Shown here: positions 18,322-25,611 of the stretch, one piece after another
Position numbering within the stretch: position 1 is the first letter of the stretch
Layout: every line of letters begins with the position of its first letter
DNA from: Actinomycetota bacterium
GTDB taxonomy: Bacteria > Actinomycetota > Acidimicrobiia > Actinomarinales > Actinomarinaceae
Direction of reading: 5' to 3'
DNA: 64,000 nucleotides
Assembly (NCBI GenBank): GCA_014239265.1
Contig: JAAZZH010000001.1
Coordinates: 107,419-171,418, forward strand
Notes under the pieces: generated by a model
The model's input: the letters and a program-made list of their open reading frames with translations, nothing else
Database searches by the model: none
What the model was told of the DNA's origin: nothing
Made by a program: the position numbers and the translations under genes

Positions 18322-18729
18322 ATGGCAGTAAAAATTAGACTTGCACAGAGAGGTAAGAAAAAAACTCGTACTTACAGAGTTGTTGTTGCTGATGCACGAT
18401 CACCTCGAGATGGTAAGTTTATTGAAGATCTTGGTTTTTACAATCCACATGATAATCCTTCAACAGTTGATATTGATGTTGAAAAAGCAGTATCTTGGTT
18501 AGATAAAGGTGCACAACCATCCGATAGAGTACAAAAATTACTAGAGATATCTGGAGCCTGGGCACAATGGCGATCTACAAAAGGTGAAGTAGTTTCTATT
18601 CCAAAAGCACCAGAACCAAAGATTAAAAGTAGTTCAAAAGCAAATATTAAAAAGACTGAAGCAGCAGCGGAAGCAGAAGTAGAAGTAGAAGTAGTGTCAG
18701 ATACCTCAGAGGGAAGTGAAGAAGAATAA
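18322..18729 (+). CDS. rpsP: 30S ribosomal protein S16 (with an acidic C-terminal extension)
   Basis: The N-terminus is [42 protein letters not shown]. Confidence 0.9.
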
Positions 18730-18983: not shown

Positions 18984-19446
18984 TAATCTTTTTACGTTAG
19001 GAATACTCGGAAAACCACATGCACTTCATGGTTATTTATATTTAAACCACGATATCTATTTCAGACAGTTTGATTTAACTGGCTTACACGTTTTCATCAA
19101 TGGCAATTCATATGAAATTGAGGATTTTAAAAAACACCTGAAAGAGCGTTTTTTAATTAAATTAAAAGGTCTAAACTCAATTTCTGATATTGAGATATTT
19201 AGAAATAAAAATATATATATAACTTCTGACCAAGTTACTTTATATGTCGCAGAAAATCTTCCCTGGCCTGGTTTTTTTGTTGATTCAAAATTAAATAGCC
19301 AGTACTTTGTTAAAGACTATTTCTATGCTGATAAATTAATCTTTCTAACTCTAAAAGATACAGAGGATATAGTAGTTCCATACAATACAAACTTTTTTAG
19401 TTATGAGAATGAAGAACTACAGTTAATTAATTTTGATTTAGCTTAA
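18976..19446 (+). CDS. rimM: 16S rRNA processing protein RimM
   Basis: GILGKPHALHGYLYL is present. The start is uncertain: TTG 18976 or 18967, or ATG 18943 (overlapping the KH gene). Confidence 0.7.
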   Translation: MTNNLFTLGILGKPHALHGYLYLNHDIYFRQFDLTGLHVFINGNSYEIEDFKKHLKERFLIKLKGLNSISDIEIFRNKNIYITSDQVTLYVAENLPWPGFFVDSKLNSQYFVKDYFYADKLIFLTLKDTEDIVVPYNTNFFSYENEELQLINFDLA

Positions 19447-20142
19447 TAGCCATTTCATAAGATCGTTGGTTATATCATCTTCCAGTAGATTTTCAGGATG
19501 CCATTGTATTCCTATAGCTTCCCAGTCAGATGTAGATTCAATTCCTTCTATTAAGTTATCCTCCGACATAGCATTTACTTTTAGATCCTGACCAAGGTCA
19601 TTGATTACTTGATGGTGGATGCTGTTAACACCTACATTGTTACCAGCAGTAACTTCACTTAAAACCGTTTGCTCTAAAATATTTATATTGTGTATGTGTT
19701 GTGAAGTAGCTTCGTTTATTTGTAAGTGTTCAATTTCTGTGTCAAAATTATCAGCTATGTGTTGATGTAAAGTTCCGCCTTTGTAAACATTTAGCAATTG
19801 GTGACCTCTACATATTGCAAGTGTTTTAATGAAATTTGTTTCTGCTATTTGTAATAAATTTAGTTCAGTTTTGTCTCTTTCATCTGAAATTCTTGTGGTT
19901 TTGGTGTCTACTTCTGCACCATATATAGAGGGATTGATATCACCTCCTCCTGTAAGTATTAACCTGTCAAAATTGGACTTACTAAATTCTATCGATAAGT
20001 TCTGAGGGGGAATAATTATAACTTCAGCACCAAATTTGTTACATAAATTAACAAATGAGATATTTAATACAGAACATGGAATAGTTCCAGGTGATAGGGT
20101 GGAATCTTCTATTCCCGAAGAAATAGCTATTAATTTACTCAT
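19438..20142 (-). CDS. Class I glutamine amidotransferase / peptidase C26 (gamma-glutamyl-GABA hydrolase-like)
   Basis: The catalytic Cys motif is LAICRGHQLLNV. A His-containing C-terminus (IQWHPE) is present. Confidence 0.7.
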   Translation of the reverse strand: MSKLIAISSGIEDSTLSPGTIPCSVLNISFVNLCNKFGAEVIIIPPQNLSIEFSKSNFDRLILTGGGDINPSIYGAEVDTKTTRISDERDKTELNLLQIAETNFIKTLAICRGHQLLNVYKGGTLHQHIADNFDTEIEHLQINEATSQHIHNINILEQTVLSEVTAGNNVGVNSIHHQVINDLGQDLKVNAMSEDNLIEGIESTSDWEAIGIQWHPENLLEDDITNDLMKWLLS

Positions 20143-20548
20143 TTATCATAAATATTGTTTGAACTTCAACACTCACATTTAGAGGTAAGCTTATAACACC
20201 AACAGCTGATCTTGTCGCTTTTTCCGAAAAGAACTCAGCTAACTTATCAGTAAAACCATTTAGAACATTTGCATGTTCAGTAAAAGAAGGCTCTGAGTTA
20301 ATAAATCCCACAACATTAATTGGAGATAATATTTTGAGATCATATTCTGTTTGTAATGTAGCTAATGTTAACTCTGCGCATAATTCGGCTGCAGTGTAAG
20401 CATCATCTACGCTTACTTCGCTAGGTACTTTACCAGTAAATTTTGTCTCATTATTAATTGGGATGTGACCAGAAGTATATATTAAACTTCCAGCACGTTT
20501 GAGGGTAATATAGTTTCCAACTGCTTTAGGTGCTTCAGGTAAATTCAT
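20135..20548 (-). CDS. RidA/YjgF-family reactive-intermediate deaminase
   Basis: It has the YjgF/L-PSP length and motifs (PKAVGNYI...SGHIP...VEVQTIF). Confidence 0.7.
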   Translation of the reverse strand: MNLPEAPKAVGNYITLKRAGSLIYTSGHIPINNETKFTGKVPSEVSVDDAYTAAELCAELTLATLQTEYDLKILSPINVVGFINSEPSFTEHANVLNGFTDKLAEFFSEKATRSAVGVISLPLNVSVEVQTIFMINE

Positions 20549-20549
20549 G

Positions 20550-21554
20550 TTAATTACTGTTGACCAGTATATTTACTAAATCAACAATACGGTTTGAGTA
20601 TCCCCACTCATTGTCATACCAGCAAACAACTTTTATATGATTTCCACTTAATAGCTGAGTGGATGAAGCATCGTAAATACTTGAATGAGGATTTTGTAAA
20701 ATATCAGTAGATACTAAGGGGATAGAGGAGTATTCAAGGATACCTTTCAATTCATTATCAGCAGCTTTCTTAACAGCATCATTTACCTCTTGTACAGTTA
20801 CTTCTTCATTAAGCTCTACTACCAAATCAACAACGCTGCCATCTGGGACAGGTACCCTCATTGCCATACCATCAAGTTTTCCATTTAACTCTGGCAACAC
20901 CATGCCAACGGCTTTTGCGGCACCAGTAGAGGTAGGAATTATATTTTGTGTAGCACTTCTCCCTCTTCTAAAATCTTTATGTGTAGTTTCAGCGAGAGCT
21001 TGGTCATTGGTATAGGCATGAATAGTAGTCATTAAGCCTGACTTAATCCCAAAATTATCATTTAAGACTTTGGCAATAGGTGCTAAGCAGTTTGTTGTAC
21101 ATGAGGCATTAGATATTAATTTTGAATCCTCATTAAGATCTCCATCGTTTACACCTAATACAACTGTTGCATCAATTTCATCTTTTGGCGGTACTGTTAA
21201 AACTACCTTTTTAGCTCCTGCCTCAATATGTTTTTCAAGAGATTTTCTATCTGCAAAGATACCGGTTGATTCTATAACAATATCTATGTCTAGTTCTTTC
21301 CAGGGTAATTCTGCAGGATTTGCAACAGAGACTAATTTTATTTCTCTGTCATCAATTTTTAATATATCTTCATTAAGAGTTACATCGTGATTCAATACTC
21401 CCATTACAGAGTCATGTTTTAATAAATAGGAAAGATTTTCATAATTCCCCAGATCATTTATTGCAACTACATTTAAATCAGAGTCACTTTCAATAATTAT
21501 TCTAAGAATCGATCTACCAATTCTGCCAAAACCGTTAATTGCAATATTACTCAT
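20550..21554 (-). CDS. gap: Glyceraldehyde-3-phosphate dehydrogenase, type I (canonical active site)
   Basis: The sequence includes INGFGRIGR, the active-site NASCTTNCLAP, TTIHAYT and WYDNEWGYS. Confidence 0.9.
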   Translation of the reverse strand: MSNIAINGFGRIGRSILRIIIESDSDLNVVAINDLGNYENLSYLLKHDSVMGVLNHDVTLNEDILKIDDREIKLVSVANPAELPWKELDIDIVIESTGIFADRKSLEKHIEAGAKKVVLTVPPKDEIDATVVLGVNDGDLNEDSKLISNASCTTNCLAPIAKVLNDNFGIKSGLMTTIHAYTNDQALAETTHKDFRRGRSATQNIIPTSTGAAKAVGMVLPELNGKLDGMAMRVPVPDGSVVDLVVELNEEVTVQEVNDAVKKAADNELKGILEYSSIPLVSTDILQNPHSSIYDASSTQLLSGNHIKVVCWYDNEWGYSNRIVDLVNILVNSN

Positions 21555-22560
21555 TGACTCTACTTTCTGAAAGTTTGGTTATTGTGTCGATTATTCTTGC
21601 ACTATATCCCCATCCATTATCAAACCAGACAAGGATTTTAATTTTATTGTTATTTATATCCATGGTTGCTAAACCATCAATAATTCCAGAATGTGAATTA
21701 CCAACAACATCTGAGGAGACAATTGGATCAAAAGTTATATCAAGAACTTTATTGTATGGAAGATGCTTAATAGCCTCTTTAATCGTCTGATTGATTTCTT
21801 CAGATGTAGCTTGTGTTTTAATATCAATTGTAAGGTCGACAGTACTTCCATCTGGTACAGGTACTGTCATAGAGGATGATGCAACCTTATCTTTCATAAA
21901 AGGTAAAACAGTTTCAATAACTTCTGAAGATTTAGTGATAGCAGGAATGATATTTTCTCCTGCAGCTCTGTTTAATCTGAAACCTTCACCGGCAACGTCA
22001 GCCAATCTATTTGAATTTGAATAACCGTGAACAGTAGTAAGAAATGCTCTCTCTACACCATATTTTTCATGAATAATTTTGAGCAGGGGAGCTACAGCAT
22101 TAGCTGTGTTTGATCCAAGAGATATGATGTCATTGTTAAAATCAACCTTTGTATCATTAGCACCAGGAACATAAATTTGTATATCACTCCCAGATTTAGG
22201 TGTCGATGCAATCAATACTCTTTTACAACCTTTTGCAATATGTTCATTGACCTCCTCAAGGTCTTGTTTTCTTCCAGTGGATACTATTAATATGTCGGTC
22301 TCAAGATCCTGCCAGGATGCTTCTGAAGCATCTTTCCAGTCATTAAAGACTATATTTTTACCATTTATTTTAAAACCAGTATCTGTTGATTCTATATCCG
22401 CATCGAGTTTTCCATATATTGTGTCGTATTTAAGCAAATAAAGAAGATTCTCTTTATCGGCTATATCGGAAATAGAGACAATATTTATTAAATCATTATT
22501 AAGAGTTTGTCTTAATAGGTCTCTTCCTATTCTTCCAAACCCTAAAATTGAAATGTTCAT
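21547..22560 (-). CDS. GAPDH-like paralog lacking both active-site cysteines (SNTANA in place of SCTTNC)
   Basis: It has ILGFGRIGR...SLGSNTANAVAPLL...TTVHGYS...WFDNGWGYS. The Cys-less motif was verified by reverse-translating nucleotides 22105-22125. Confidence 0.75.
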   Translation of the reverse strand: MNISILGFGRIGRDLLRQTLNNDLINIVSISDIADKENLLYLLKYDTIYGKLDADIESTDTGFKINGKNIVFNDWKDASEASWQDLETDILIVSTGRKQDLEEVNEHIAKGCKRVLIASTPKSGSDIQIYVPGANDTKVDFNNDIISLGSNTANAVAPLLKIIHEKYGVERAFLTTVHGYSNSNRLADVAGEGFRLNRAAGENIIPAITKSSEVIETVLPFMKDKVASSSMTVPVPDGSTVDLTIDIKTQATSEEINQTIKEAIKHLPYNKVLDITFDPIVSSDVVGNSHSGIIDGLATMDINNNKIKILVWFDNGWGYSARIIDTITKLSESRVNE

Positions 22561-22633
22561 AAATGCCTCGTATAGTTAAGTCTTAATCATAAAGGATTGG
22601 TTGTATAAATTATGTCGATTTTATTAAATATTT

Positions 22634-23761
22634 GTGAACTCTAGAGTATTGGTAATGATGTTATACGAACAAATAGATACCCTTCTCTTTGGAGAAAAGC
22701 CAACCTCGGAACTGTCTGCCGAGGCTTTTGATGTTAAATTATCAAGTTTCGGAAAAAATATTACATACAGTCCTAAGGTTTTTATACCCCTAACTACTTT
22801 ATGTCAAGATTCATGTGCGTATTGTACATTTGTTAAAACCCCAAAAGATGGAGGTACTTTCCTTAACTATGAAGAAGTAGATGCAATTGCATCTGTTGGT
22901 GTATCTGCAGGGTGTTACGAAGCATTATTTACACTTGGAGATAAACCAGAGGTTAAATGGGATTTTGCACTTGAACAATTAAAAAGTTTTGGTTTTTCTT
23001 CAACTCATGAGTATCTAACTGACAATATGAAAAAAATTCATCAGAAATATAAAATATTTCCTCATGCAAATCCAGGATTAATGACTAAAGATGAAATTAT
23101 TAACTACAAACAATATTCTCCCTCTGGAGGTCTTATGCTAGAGAGTTTTTCTCCTAAATTACTGGAAAAAGGTCGAGCACACTATGGTGCTAAAACAAAA
23201 AATATAAAATATCGAATTGAAACATTAAATAATGCTGAAAAAATTAAATACCCAATGACAACAGGTCTTCTTATTGGGATAACTGAGAGTAAAGATGAAT
23301 TAATAAATGATATTGTAGAACTTATTCAATTATGTAAAAAAAATACTGCAATACAGGAAATAATTTTACAAAACTTTAGAGCTAAAAAAAATACGCTTAT
23401 GAGAAATAATGCCGAAATAATAAATGATCTCTTCTTAAGGATTATCGCAATCACAAGATTATTGTTACCATCCCAGATTTCATTACAGGTCCCACCTAAC
23501 CTATTACCTGATGTTGAAATGTACTTAACTAGTGGTATTAATGACTTAGGAGGAATATCACCTAAGACTATTGATTGGGTTAATCCTGATCACTTGTGGC
23601 CAGATCTAAATAATTTAGAAAAAATAACAAGTTCAAGTGGACAATCTCTTAAAAAAAGACTTCCTGTTTATCCAAGTTTTATAAATAATGAATGGTTAAG
23701 CCCACCAGTTTTTGAAAAAGTCAGTAATGTTATTGATAACAATGGTTATCCGAAACAATGA
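22634..23761 (+). CDS. cofG: FO synthase subunit 1 (7,8-didemethyl-8-hydroxy-5-deazariboflavin synthase) CofG
   Basis: The radical SAM motif sits in the CofG context ITYSPKVFIPLTTLCQDSCAYCTFV. The start is GTG 22634 or ATG 22655. Confidence 0.75.
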   Translation: MNSRVLVMMLYEQIDTLLFGEKPTSELSAEAFDVKLSSFGKNITYSPKVFIPLTTLCQDSCAYCTFVKTPKDGGTFLNYEEVDAIASVGVSAGCYEALFTLGDKPEVKWDFALEQLKSFGFSSTHEYLTDNMKKIHQKYKIFPHANPGLMTKDEIINYKQYSPSGGLMLESFSPKLLEKGRAHYGAKTKNIKYRIETLNNAEKIKYPMTTGLLIGITESKDELINDIVELIQLCKKNTAIQEIILQNFRAKKNTLMRNNAEIINDLFLRIIAITRLLLPSQISLQVPPNLLPDVEMYLTSGINDLGGISPKTIDWVNPDHLWPDLNNLEKITSSSGQSLKKRLPVYPSFINNEWLSPPVFEKVSNVIDNNGYPKQ

Positions 23762-25611
23762 TAGAAAATAAAAATATATCCTATTTAAGAGTCCGTCCTT
23801 GCGATAGTGATAATGAGATATATTTGAATTCAAGAGCTAAAGAAGGTACTTCTGCCTTTACTTTGAAACCAGGACTTGATATCAATTATCAAAATCTATT
23901 AATAAATGGCTTTCAAACTATTTCATCAGATATTGTTTCTAATTCTTCAGCATGGTTCGTTGATGATGAACTGATAAACACAAAGATAGAACAAAATTCA
24001 AAAAGATTAATTTATCGATACAAGGGAATTAAAGAAAATGCTTTAGAAGTGATTTCAAGATACAAACCAGCGATAGTACTTATAGATAACCTCGAAGATA
24101 TGGAATTTTTCATGTCTCTTAATGGAACAACTAATTTTATTATCTCTAAGTATGTTAACTCTATAGATGAGGCTATAGAGGCTGTAAAAAGGGGAGTCGA
24201 TGACTTATTTCTGCGTGATTGGAGCAAAAATCAAATTCTAGAACTTCAAAGTAATTTATCAATTCCTTTGTACGAGAGAACAATACTTTCACCACTGCTA
24301 GAAGTTAATGAAGCCAGGAACTTATTAGAAAAAACTGAATTTACAAATTTCCTTCAAACGAGAAATGTTCGAGGTTACAAAAGAGAAACTACTTCATGGT
24401 ATCCAGGCAGCGGAGAGTCTATACCTAATCTTTTCAATTTCACTTCAGAAACATTATCTGATTATAAAACCTCGAATTTAGATAATATTTTAAAAAATTT
24501 TCAAAAAACAGAACATCTTAATGAAAAAGATCTCCTTGATTTATTTAAAACATCTGGAAAGTACATCAATCAAATTGCTGAACTTGCGAATGAGTTAACA
24601 AAGAATGTTCACGGTAACAAAGTTACATTTGTTAAAAACCGAAACATCAATTACACAAATCAGTGTTATTACAAGTGTGGTTTCTGTGGCTTTTCAAAAG
24701 GTCCCCAAAGTTTAGATCTTAAAGAAAAACCATATACATTAACACCTGATGAAGTCCTTAATAGAACAATAGAAGCACATAAAAATGGCGCCTCAGAAGT
24801 TTGCTTACAAGGGGGGATTCATCCAAGTTATACAGGAGATTTCTATATTGATTTAGTTAAAAAAATAAAGAGTGAATTACCTGACATGCACATACATGGG
24901 TTTACACCACTGGAAATATGGCAAGGTGCAAATACTGTAAATAAGTCAATAGAAAACTATTTACAAGAACTTAAAGAAGCAGGGTTGGGAACTCTACCTG
25001 GCACTGCAGCTGAAATACTGGATGACAGAATAAGGAAGTACTTGTGCGATGATAAAATTACTTCATCTCAATGGGGTTACGTTATGGAAGTTGCTCATTC
25101 ATTAGGTATTAAATCTACTGCAACAATTATGTTCGGCCACATAGATGATCTAGAGTCTTGGGTAAATCACTTTCAATTAATTAAAAATATTCAATTAAAA
25201 ACAAATGGATTTACAGAAATTGTCCCTCTTCCTTTTGTTCACATGGGTTCTCCAATATTTTTACAAGGTAAGAGTATGCCAGGTCCTGCTTGGGATGAAA
25301 TAGTGCTGATGCATTCATTAGCGAGAATATACTTTTACAACACAATAGATAATATTCAAGCAAGCTGGGTAAAACTTGGTCATGATGGTGCAAAAGTGCT
25401 TCTTGAGTCTGGTGTTAATGATCTCGGAGGAACGTTAATCAATGAAAACATCAGTAGGGCATCAGGAGCAAATCACGGTCAGGAGACTACTGACATGGAA
25501 TTTATCAGTCTAATTAATGATGCAGGAAAAATTCCATATTTAAGAAACACGTTATATACATCTTTTAAGAATCTTGAAAGTGTAAGTTTTGAAAATGTTA
25601 TCAAAATATAA
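23758..25611 (+). CDS. cofH: FO synthase subunit 2 CofH with a ~250-aa N-terminal extension of unknown function
   Basis: The CofH radical SAM motif is VTFVKNRNINYTNQCYYKCGFCGFSKG, at residue ~300. There is an ATGA overlap with cofG. The frame is open through the extension. Confidence 0.7.
   Translation: MIENKNISYLRVRPCDSDNEIYLNSRAKEGTSAFTLKPGLDINYQNLLINGFQTISSDIVSNSSAWFVDDELINTKIEQNSKRLIYRYKGIKENALEVISRYKPAIVLIDNLEDMEFFMSLNGTTNFIISKYVNSIDEAIEAVKRGVDDLFLRDWSKNQILELQSNLSIPLYERTILSPLLEVNEARNLLEKTEFTNFLQTRNVRGYKRETTSWYPGSGESIPNLFNFTSETLSDYKTSNLDNILKNFQKTEHLNEKDLLDLFKTSGKYINQIAELANELTKNVHGNKVTFVKNRNINYTNQCYYKCGFCGFSKGPQSLDLKEKPYTLTPDEVLNRTIEAHKNGASEVCLQGGIHPSYTGDFYIDLVKKIKSELPDMHIHGFTPLEIWQGANTVNKSIENYLQELKEAGLGTLPGTAAEILDDRIRKYLCDDKITSSQWGYVMEVAHSLGIKSTATIMFGHIDDLESWVNHFQLIKNIQLKTNGFTEIVPLPFVHMGSPIFLQGKSMPGPAWDEIVLMHSLARIYFYNTIDNIQASWVKLGHDGAKVLLESGVNDLGGTLINENISRASGANHGQETTDMEFISLINDAGKIPYLRNTLYTSFKNLESVSFENVIKI

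Follow-up and report, generated by a model that had tools for sequence, protein, structure and literature searches.

The window analysed here, a stretch of 64,000 nucleotides with a G+C content of 32-35%, comes from Candidatus Actinomarina (Acidimicrobiia), the name borne by its closest proteins, and carries on its minus strand two overlapping genes that belong to one family, that of glyceraldehyde-3-phosphate dehydrogenase (GAPDH). The downstream one, gap (20550..21554, 334 amino acids), encodes a canonical type I GAPDH in which Cys149, His176, R195, R231 and E314 are all kept. The upstream one (21547..22560, ATG start, 337 amino acids), identified from its open reading frame (ORF) and translation, encodes a paralog devoid of the catalytic cysteine; the family to which it belongs had no name, and GapX is the name given here. 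There is, in our opinion, about an even chance that GapX is a subunit which binds nicotinamide adenine dinucleotide (NAD(H)), is dead for GAPDH chemistry and co-assembles with Gap. This reading is favoured because catalytic and phosphate-binding residues are lost and the NAD site is kept, because the gene is under purifying selection, and because it is obligately paired with gap, diverges together with it and shares with it a signature in the S-loop. An earlier note on this DNA hesitated between a pseudo-enzyme and a new activity, and the evidence leans toward a Gap partner dead for GAPDH chemistry.

Active site, fold and selection on GapX

GapX and Gap of the window share 37% identity over their full length. 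Both contain the Pfam domains Gp_dh_N and Gp_dh_C, which score 85 and 136 bits in GapX, whereas the type I GAPDH model TIGR01534 (cut-off 367.2 bits) places Gap above its cut-off (441.9 bits) and GapX below it (281.4 bits). As previously stated in the earlier note, the Rossmann N-terminus (GFGRIGR) and the TTVHGYS and WFDNGWGYS motifs are all kept in GapX. Orthologs were collected by a genome scan with one genome per species, which gave 80 loci from Actinomarinales and other Acidimicrobiia with identities from 98% down to 42%, and as a second set of 118 further Acidimicrobiia-type proteins. The search for other Cys-to-Asn homologs and their neighbourhoods, suggested in the same note, has thus yielded about 200 Acidimicrobiia orthologs; the part of the neighbourhood that is conserved throughout the class and outside it is the gapX-gap pair.

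Residue numbers used here follow the GAPDH of Geobacillus stearothermophilus, to which the orthologs were aligned for this purpose only; titles of PDB entries give the same numbers for two anchors, L187/P188 and N313. The active-site segment reads ISNASCTTNCLAP in Gap, around the motif SNASCTTNCLAP, and ISLGSNTANAVAP in GapX. The codons quoted in the earlier note (tca aac aca gct aat gct) are indeed found at 22113..22096 on the minus strand, and the AAC codon at 22108..22110 places Asn, residue 151 of GapX, at the position of Cys149. Asn occupies this position in 80 of 80 genome loci and in 118 of 118 further orthologs, and just two of the representative GapX sequences already cover 260 and 442 independent contigs, respectively. 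The claim that thiohemiacetal chemistry is impossible holds for such a GAPDH paralog without nucleophile. By contrast, the statement that both active-site cysteines were lost is correct only in that both are replaced, by Asn and by an Ala at Cys153 (GCT, 22096..22098, minus strand) which is invariant in the subfamily. It overstates the second loss, because 30 of the 106 Cys149-containing GAPDH representatives have Ala, Ser or Gly at this position, and Cys153 is not a catalytic residue.

The missing cysteine is only part of the alteration, as R195, R231 and E314 are lost too and the loop 209-211 is remodelled, which the earlier note had overlooked. On the minus strand, R195 is replaced by Leu (TTA, 21973..21975), a position taken by L, K, Q, N, S or T in the orthologs and always by R in the partner Gap; R231 is replaced by Thr (ACA, 21865..21867), with T in Actinomarinales and N in other Acidimicrobiia; and E314 is replaced by Gly (GGA, 21613..21615), found in all 80 loci and all 118 further orthologs. 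R231 and E314 are each present in 103 of 106 canonical GAPDH representatives. Within the Pi loop (209-211), G209-A210 has become K or N followed by Ser in Acidimicrobiia GapX, and T179 is changed conservatively to Ser in the protein of the window. In GAPDH, the Ps site, which receives the substrate phosphate, comprises T179, R195 and R231, and the Pi site comprises S148 and T208-A210 (bioRxiv 10.1101/2022.05.03.490436). His176 (CAC, 22027..22029, minus strand) is kept and invariant in the 80 + 118 orthologs; GxGxxG, D32, N313 and Y317, as well as S148, T150, R194 and R197, are invariant or nearly so in Acidimicrobiia GapX, and T96 and T208 are kept in most orthologs.

The sequence thus points to a protein that has lost the nucleophile and the cationic phosphate site and has retained an intact dinucleotide pocket. 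Such a protein is predicted to be unable to perform covalent GAPDH catalysis or to bind the C3 phosphate in the usual way. With the nucleophile, R195 and R231 gone, GapX should therefore neither oxidise nor phosphorylate glyceraldehyde-3-phosphate, and no NAD+ reduction dependent on this substrate is predicted. GapX and its partner show parallel conservation in the NAD fingerprint, active-site strand, S-loop, strands and C-terminal WxDN motif. The constraint on GapX is specifically relaxed in the helix past the Pi loop (alignment positions 211-230 of the G. stearothermophilus enzyme), where entropy reaches 1.4-1.5 versus 0.3-0.5 in the partner.

The AlphaFold2 model of the GapX monomer, built from a 62-sequence alignment, adopts the GAPDH fold with a predicted local distance difference test score (pLDDT) of 87 and a predicted template modelling score of 0.86. 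A Foldseek search with this model returned only ordinary GAPDHs, with template modelling (TM) scores of 0.88-0.90, including engineered C149A and C149S mutants. The sole part modelled with low confidence is the S-loop (residues 181-203, pLDDT <50), which is among the most conserved segments of GapX in sequence, yet is unplaced in the monomer. This would fit a loop conformation that depends on neighbouring subunits.

GapX is under strong purifying selection. The ratio of nonsynonymous to synonymous substitution rates (dN/dS) was 0.04-0.07 in nine of the ten pairs computed, and 0.02-0.06 for the adjacent gap; dS is close to saturation in most of these pairs, and the unsaturated pair WIN-L002 gives 0.066. 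The tenth pair, nearly identical (dS 0.03), gave 0.28.

Pairing with gap and extent of the family

In the window, gapX and gap overlap by 8 nucleotides (ATGAGTAA, 21547..21554, minus strand), from the gap start codon to the gapX stop codon. Wherever a genome locus extended far enough downstream, the gene next to gapX was a canonical gap with the site pattern CHRGRE (72 full-length partners), and none of the genome loci with downstream DNA lacks this partner. The junction there is an 8-nucleotide overlap, a 4-nucleotide overlap or an abutting of the two genes; in other lineages it is a 4-nucleotide ATGA overlap or a junction of 0-5 nucleotides. The overlap, of 8 or 4 nucleotides in most lineages, indicates probable translational coupling. 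In metagenomes, examined by a scan followed by site extraction based on hidden Markov models, a GAPDH-family gene came next in all 63 cases in which downstream DNA of an X-type gene extended for at least 300 nucleotides (63 of 63), and an X-type gene came before the canonical gene in all 54 cases with upstream DNA of at least 1050 nucleotides (54 of 54). The search patterns favour the pair, so these counts show obligate pairing within the family, and not its frequency among bacteria.

Two contigs deserve a separate mention. A metagenome contig of 1909 nucleotides (L117), the sole possible exception to the pairing that was met, carries a canonical partner-like gap with about 800 nucleotides of upstream DNA and no detectable GapX fragment. 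Another locus (L096, 1525-5005) presents a pyk-gapX-gap string with overlapping junctions, i.e. a glycolytic operon context, with genes of TonB-dependent receptors nearby.

The two proteins have also diverged together. Pairwise distances among X proteins and among their partners were correlated over 78 loci (r = 0.77, a value reached in 0 of 999 Mantel permutations), with X evolving about 1.25-1.45 times faster than the partner. In a neighbour-joining tree of 137 sequences with 200 bootstraps, X proteins formed one clade (66%), including the Cys-retaining P0127, and partners formed another (60%). The S-loop is the inter-subunit core of the GAPDH tetramer, and its residues L187 and P188 are coenzyme-specificity determinants that reach the cofactor site of the neighbouring subunit; both are mutated in PDB 1DBV, according to the title of that entry. 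Four residues of this loop (R183, A185, V187 and E201) have frequencies of 0.82-1.00 in X and partner, versus 0.00-0.19 in 97 other GAPDHs. The partner bears, in addition, marks of its own, V120 (1.00 versus 0.04) and Met at position 50 (0.95 versus 0.04).

GapX is not restricted to Acidimicrobiia. Among the 150 best representatives of clusters at 50% identity, drawn from 1.84 billion proteins, 20 have S, N, V, A, P, G or T in place of Cys149, and many of these show R231 changed to N or K, E314 changed to G and an altered G209, with His176 kept. Outside Acidimicrobiia, a second GAPDH-family gene lies directly downstream in five of the six contexts examined (P0142; P0151, from Planctomycetota; P0133; P0169; and P0129), the contig of the sixth (P0161) ending at the gene. 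Four of the five junctions are 4-nucleotide start/stop overlaps and the fifth is a gap of 5 nucleotides; the downstream gene reads SNASCTTNCLAP wherever the region is covered. P0127, which keeps Cys149 and has lost R195, R231 and E314, has the same arrangement and clusters with the Cys-less X proteins. Conversely, P0128 and P0149, picked from the partner clade blind to context, each have an X-type gene upstream with an ATGA overlap, and one of these two pairs lies behind pyruvate kinase.

A profile of the non-Acidimicrobiia members gave another 118 proteins, with N231 in 105 and G314 in 117 of them and W, N or H at position 209. At position 149, 96 of the 118 have Cys, 14 N, 3 I, 3 S and 2 V, and most members of this wider family keep Cys149, His176 and R195. 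For one of its proteins, found in Terriglobia, the next gene is once more a second gap. On these sequences, GapX is marked by the loss of R231 and E314 and by the remodelled 209-211 loop; the protein of the window bears them (T231, G314), and N or T at 231 with G314 is found in 198 orthologs. The Acidimicrobiia branch can be described as the Asn149 version of GapX, in which R195 is lost as well. Since most wider-family members still have Cys149, the Cys-to-Asn change is best read as a secondary event, the cysteine having been lost several times, in different lineages (to N, S, V, I, A, P or G), with the pairing kept. The protein of the window is a member of a multi-phylum family, and not a lineage oddity. 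The family spans at least three phyla (Acidimicrobiia, Planctomycetota and Acidobacteriota), a breadth that rests on the labels of metagenome-assembled genomes (Acidimicrobiia, Planctomycetota, Terriglobia, Polarisedimenticolaceae).

Some members of the family have particular features. A sub-lineage with the residues 'NKTNNG' at the diagnostic sites (L133, L151, L153, L154, L156, L161, L163, L172 and L173) combines Asn149 with His176 changed to Lys and R195 changed to Thr, with a canonical gap still directly downstream. P0151 (L084, 6001-7038, Planctomycetota) has Ser149 and a Cys three residues earlier (LLSCGTSTGNC), at position 146, which is Asn in canonical GAPDH; this Cys may be a displaced thiol. 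Two giant proteins from the search of cluster representatives, P0124 (2089 amino acids) and P0140 (1455 amino acids), each join several complete GAPDH units in a single chain, four in the former and two in the latter. P0417 (564 amino acids) and P0125 (509 amino acids) were considered as natural X-Gap fusions and rejected, assembly frameshifts having merged GapX with Gap.

No known named Cys-less subfamily was found to accommodate these proteins: no NCBIfam model passed and cluster names are generic, in accordance with the check proposed in the earlier note. Their source labels are automatic ('GAPDH', 'type I glyceraldehyde-3-phosphate dehydrogenase' or 'NAD-binding domain-containing protein'). 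Public 'type I GAPDH' labels inflate the count of gap copies and mislead metabolic reconstructions. The signature made of R231 changed to N or T and E314 changed to G, directly upstream of gap, would permit a dedicated family model.

A proposed partner subunit of Gap and competing explanations

From a mechanistic point of view, GapX would be a degenerate GAPDH paralog that has retained the family's fold and whose NAD(H) pocket is intact; its gene would be transcribed and translated together with the overlapping canonical gap. The two proteins would then be produced in about equal amounts and may co-assemble as a mixed tetramer, for example X2G2. In such a tetramer, GapX would supply the S-loop, inter-subunit surfaces and a non-catalytic NAD(H)-binding site, and would serve the catalytic subunits as a 'prozyme-like' partner with a scaffolding or allosteric role. 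GAPDH is among the most studied enzymes, and the bacterial one is taken to be a homotetramer whose subunits are identical and active. In the lineages considered here, which belong to at least three phyla and include a marine actinobacterium that ranks among the most abundant, gap is coupled to a second, conserved gene that resembles one for a subunit. If GapX is truly a partner subunit, central glycolysis of these lineages depends on a heteromeric GAPDH, one kind of subunit being dead or altered, and offers a natural system for the study of GAPDH cooperativity, half-site reactivity and redox sensitivity.

A bolder proposal can be made, which we advance tentatively and hold to be somewhat doubtful. 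Homotetrameric GAPDH displays negative cooperativity for NAD+ and half-of-the-sites reactivity, and a tetramer with two dedicated non-catalytic subunits would, as a speculation, be a fixed version of that behaviour. The glycolytic GAPDH of Acidimicrobiia (including Candidatus Actinomarina), Acidobacteriota, Planctomycetota and other bacteria might then be an obligate Gap + GapX heterotetramer, in which GapX is a 'prozyme' fixing half-of-the-sites behaviour and negative cooperativity, and in which the GapX Cys was free to disappear repeatedly.

Co-assembly of two GAPDH paralogs in one tetramer, one of them regulatory, has a precedent in the chloroplast GapA/GapB A2B2 enzyme. PDB entries of the latter are 2PKQ and 7Q53. 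However, each of the plant subunits is catalytically competent, and the regulation exerted by GapB depends on a C-terminal extension, whereas GapX, which would co-assemble with Gap, has neither extension nor nucleophile. The proposed mode of action also resembles that of the trypanosomatid AdoMetDC prozyme (PMC6221367) and of plant PDX1.2 (PMC6829848), which are dead paralogs selected for a hetero-oligomer in which they modulate the active paralog. Loss of catalytic residues and purifying selection are found in GapX as well. Both nevertheless belong to other enzyme families, are eukaryotic and have no translationally coupled bicistron, and the complex is conjectural in GapX.

Engineered C149A and C149S GAPDHs (PDB 1NPT, 1NQ5), which were among the top structural matches of the GapX model, are Cys-less and yet fold, tetramerise and bind NAD+; they keep R195, R231 and E314, whereas GapX is natural and conserved and has a remodelled phosphate site. 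Vertebrate ALDH16 is a natural homolog without catalytic Cys, with a proposed role in protein-protein interaction (PMC12041015), but it belongs to the AlDH superfamily and GapX to the GapDH superfamily. Compared with type I GAPDH itself (EC 1.2.1.12; TIGR01534; 1GD1), GapX has the two Pfam domains, the fold (TM 0.88-0.90 at 36% identity), the NAD fingerprint, D32, N313, Y317, His176, S148 and T150, but it lacks Cys149, R195, R231 and E314, its G209-A211 loop is changed and its TIGR01534 score is below the cut-off. GapX is accordingly not regarded as a type I GAPDH: it scores too low in the curated model, lacks the nucleophile and the Ps-site arginines, and is predicted to have no GAPDH activity. 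A 2025 review of the GapDH superfamily lists no Cys-less member in GapDH class I (PMC12041015). Neither this review nor a genomic paper on the order that is sister to Actinomarinales reports a Cys-less or tandem-partner GAPDH, and no description of a bacterial one was found in the literature searched, most subscription journals being outside its coverage.

Several points weigh against a co-assembling, catalytically dead subunit. The physical complex between GapX and Gap is inferred from sequence, and no charge complementarity was found between X and partner. N149 and H176 are invariant in Acidimicrobiia despite about 43% identity, which suggests a ligand-binding or catalytic role of GapX's own site and not pure scaffolding. 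Ancestral GapX may have been an active enzyme of different specificity, because Cys149, His176 and R195 persist in the majority of wider-family proteins. The tandem order could partly reflect inertia after a tandem duplication, and common ancestry alone can explain the shared S-loop motif. Finally, the phylogeny was obtained by neighbour-joining only, with moderate bootstrap values and X on long branches, so attraction artefacts are possible.

Some of these points nourish the main rival explanation, which we judge unlikely on the whole: GapX would have been neofunctionalised into an NAD-dependent oxidoreductase that needs no Cys, or into some other enzyme, and would act on a substrate of its own. 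The general base would be His176, a remodelled neutral pocket (N/T231, N/K209, S210 and N149) would receive a non-phosphorylated ligand, and adjacency to gap would reflect nothing but co-regulation. In line with this, the roughly 200 Acidimicrobiia orthologs do not vary at N149, S148, T150, H176 or the NAD site. What takes the place of the arginines is conserved and polar (N231, N209, S210) and not random, the residues kept in the wider family would fit an ancestral activity with altered specificity, and some clades of the GapDH superfamily are active despite loss of the Cys (PMC12041015). On the other hand, other paired lineages have V, I, A, P or G at position 149 and one N149 lineage ('NKTNNG') has Lys at position 176, so that the GapX family has no common set of catalytic residues. 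The helix past the Pi loop evolves fast, and a new enzyme leaves unexplained the obligate pairing, the coupled translation amid variable neighbours and the clade-specific marks of the partner.

It is less probable still that GapX senses NAD(H) or another metabolite as a regulatory or moonlighting protein without forming a complex with Gap, through RNA or DNA binding or through control of another enzyme. The retained NAD pocket and the lost catalysis would suit this role, and GAPDHs are known moonlighters. Yet GapX has no extra domain or extension (337 amino acids versus 334), and its strict pairing and co-divergence with one gap clade point to Gap as the partner.

A service to the neighbours of the pair in the window was also considered and is very improbable, being largely refuted by comparative contexts. 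GapX would then act in an imine or glutamyl pathway together with the products of the rid and amidotransferase genes, or in F420 synthesis together with those of the divergent cofG/cofH. Indeed, gap is followed, 1 nucleotide past its stop, by a Rid/YjgF-family gene (20135..20548, minus strand; Pfam Ribonuc_L-PSP, 44.6 bits), whose product scores under the RidA equivalog cut-offs. This gene is overlapped by 8 nucleotides by a Peptidase_C26 / class-I glutamine amidotransferase-like gene (19438..20142, minus strand; Pfam Peptidase_C26, 170 bits). The four minus-strand genes are tightly packed (junctions of 8, 1 and 8 nucleotides), their order is kept in Actinomarinales loci with enough DNA, and cofG lies divergently upstream of gapX in Actinomarinales and several other Acidimicrobiia. 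The earlier note had described gapX as the first gene of an operon with gap, ridA and a glutamine amidotransferase; the tightly packed same-strand string is there, but the rid and amidotransferase linkage is confined to Actinomarinales. It is found in loci L001-L054 with downstream DNA, whereas neither L055-L080 nor the loci of the other phyla have these two genes beside the pair. Elsewhere in Acidimicrobiia, other flanking genes occur (peptidases, methyltransferase, MFS transporter, response regulator and others). The gene cofG is missing at loci L081, L084, L086, L091, L093, L096 and L097. In L082, the pair stands between cofG/cofH and rimM-KH-rpsP, as in the window, minus rid and amidotransferase, so these two genes look like a later insertion. 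Both ridA/amidotransferase and cofG/cofH (F420) were thus rejected as conserved associations, their occurrence being lineage-specific, and the selected unit is the two-gene gapX-gap cassette.

Lastly, an error of sequencing or assembly, or else a duplicate in decay (pseudogene), to which the unusual residue and a split ORF in one single-cell assembly could point, can be dismissed almost entirely, because AAC differs at two positions from either Cys codon (TGT, TGC), because Asn is universal in the orthologs and in hundreds of contigs, which excludes the sequencing error evoked in the earlier note, and because ORFs are intact, dN/dS is low and the fold prediction is confident. In the locus concerned (L051, 5995-7000, assembly AG-917-O09), gapX is in two ORFs of 254 and 89 amino acids, either through a frameshift error of the single-cell assembly or through a rare inactivation.

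Surroundings of the pair in the window

The divergent intergenic region between gapX and cofG is 73 nucleotides long (22561..22633). The best sigma-70-like match upstream of gapX on the minus strand (22638..22609, 10 of 12 positions) is weak evidence for a promoter, and the scan for promoters and terminators found promoter-like sites in this region to be no commoner than in shuffled sequences. An Rfam scan of the full 64-kb window revealed no tRNA, rRNA, riboswitch or other family at the gathering threshold.

On the other side of this region, FO synthase (F420) is split into two plus-strand genes overlapping by 4 nucleotides, cofG (22634-23761, 375 amino acids) and cofH (23758-25611, 617 amino acids). 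The CofH domain spans only residues ~231-605, the first ~230 residues having no Pfam or NCBIfam match; the CofH homolog of L082 has the same length (625 amino acids), so that the extension appears conserved. The gene of ribosomal protein S16 (18322-18729, plus strand) encodes a long acidic low-complexity C-terminal tail and is followed by a KH-domain gene and rimM, with overlaps.

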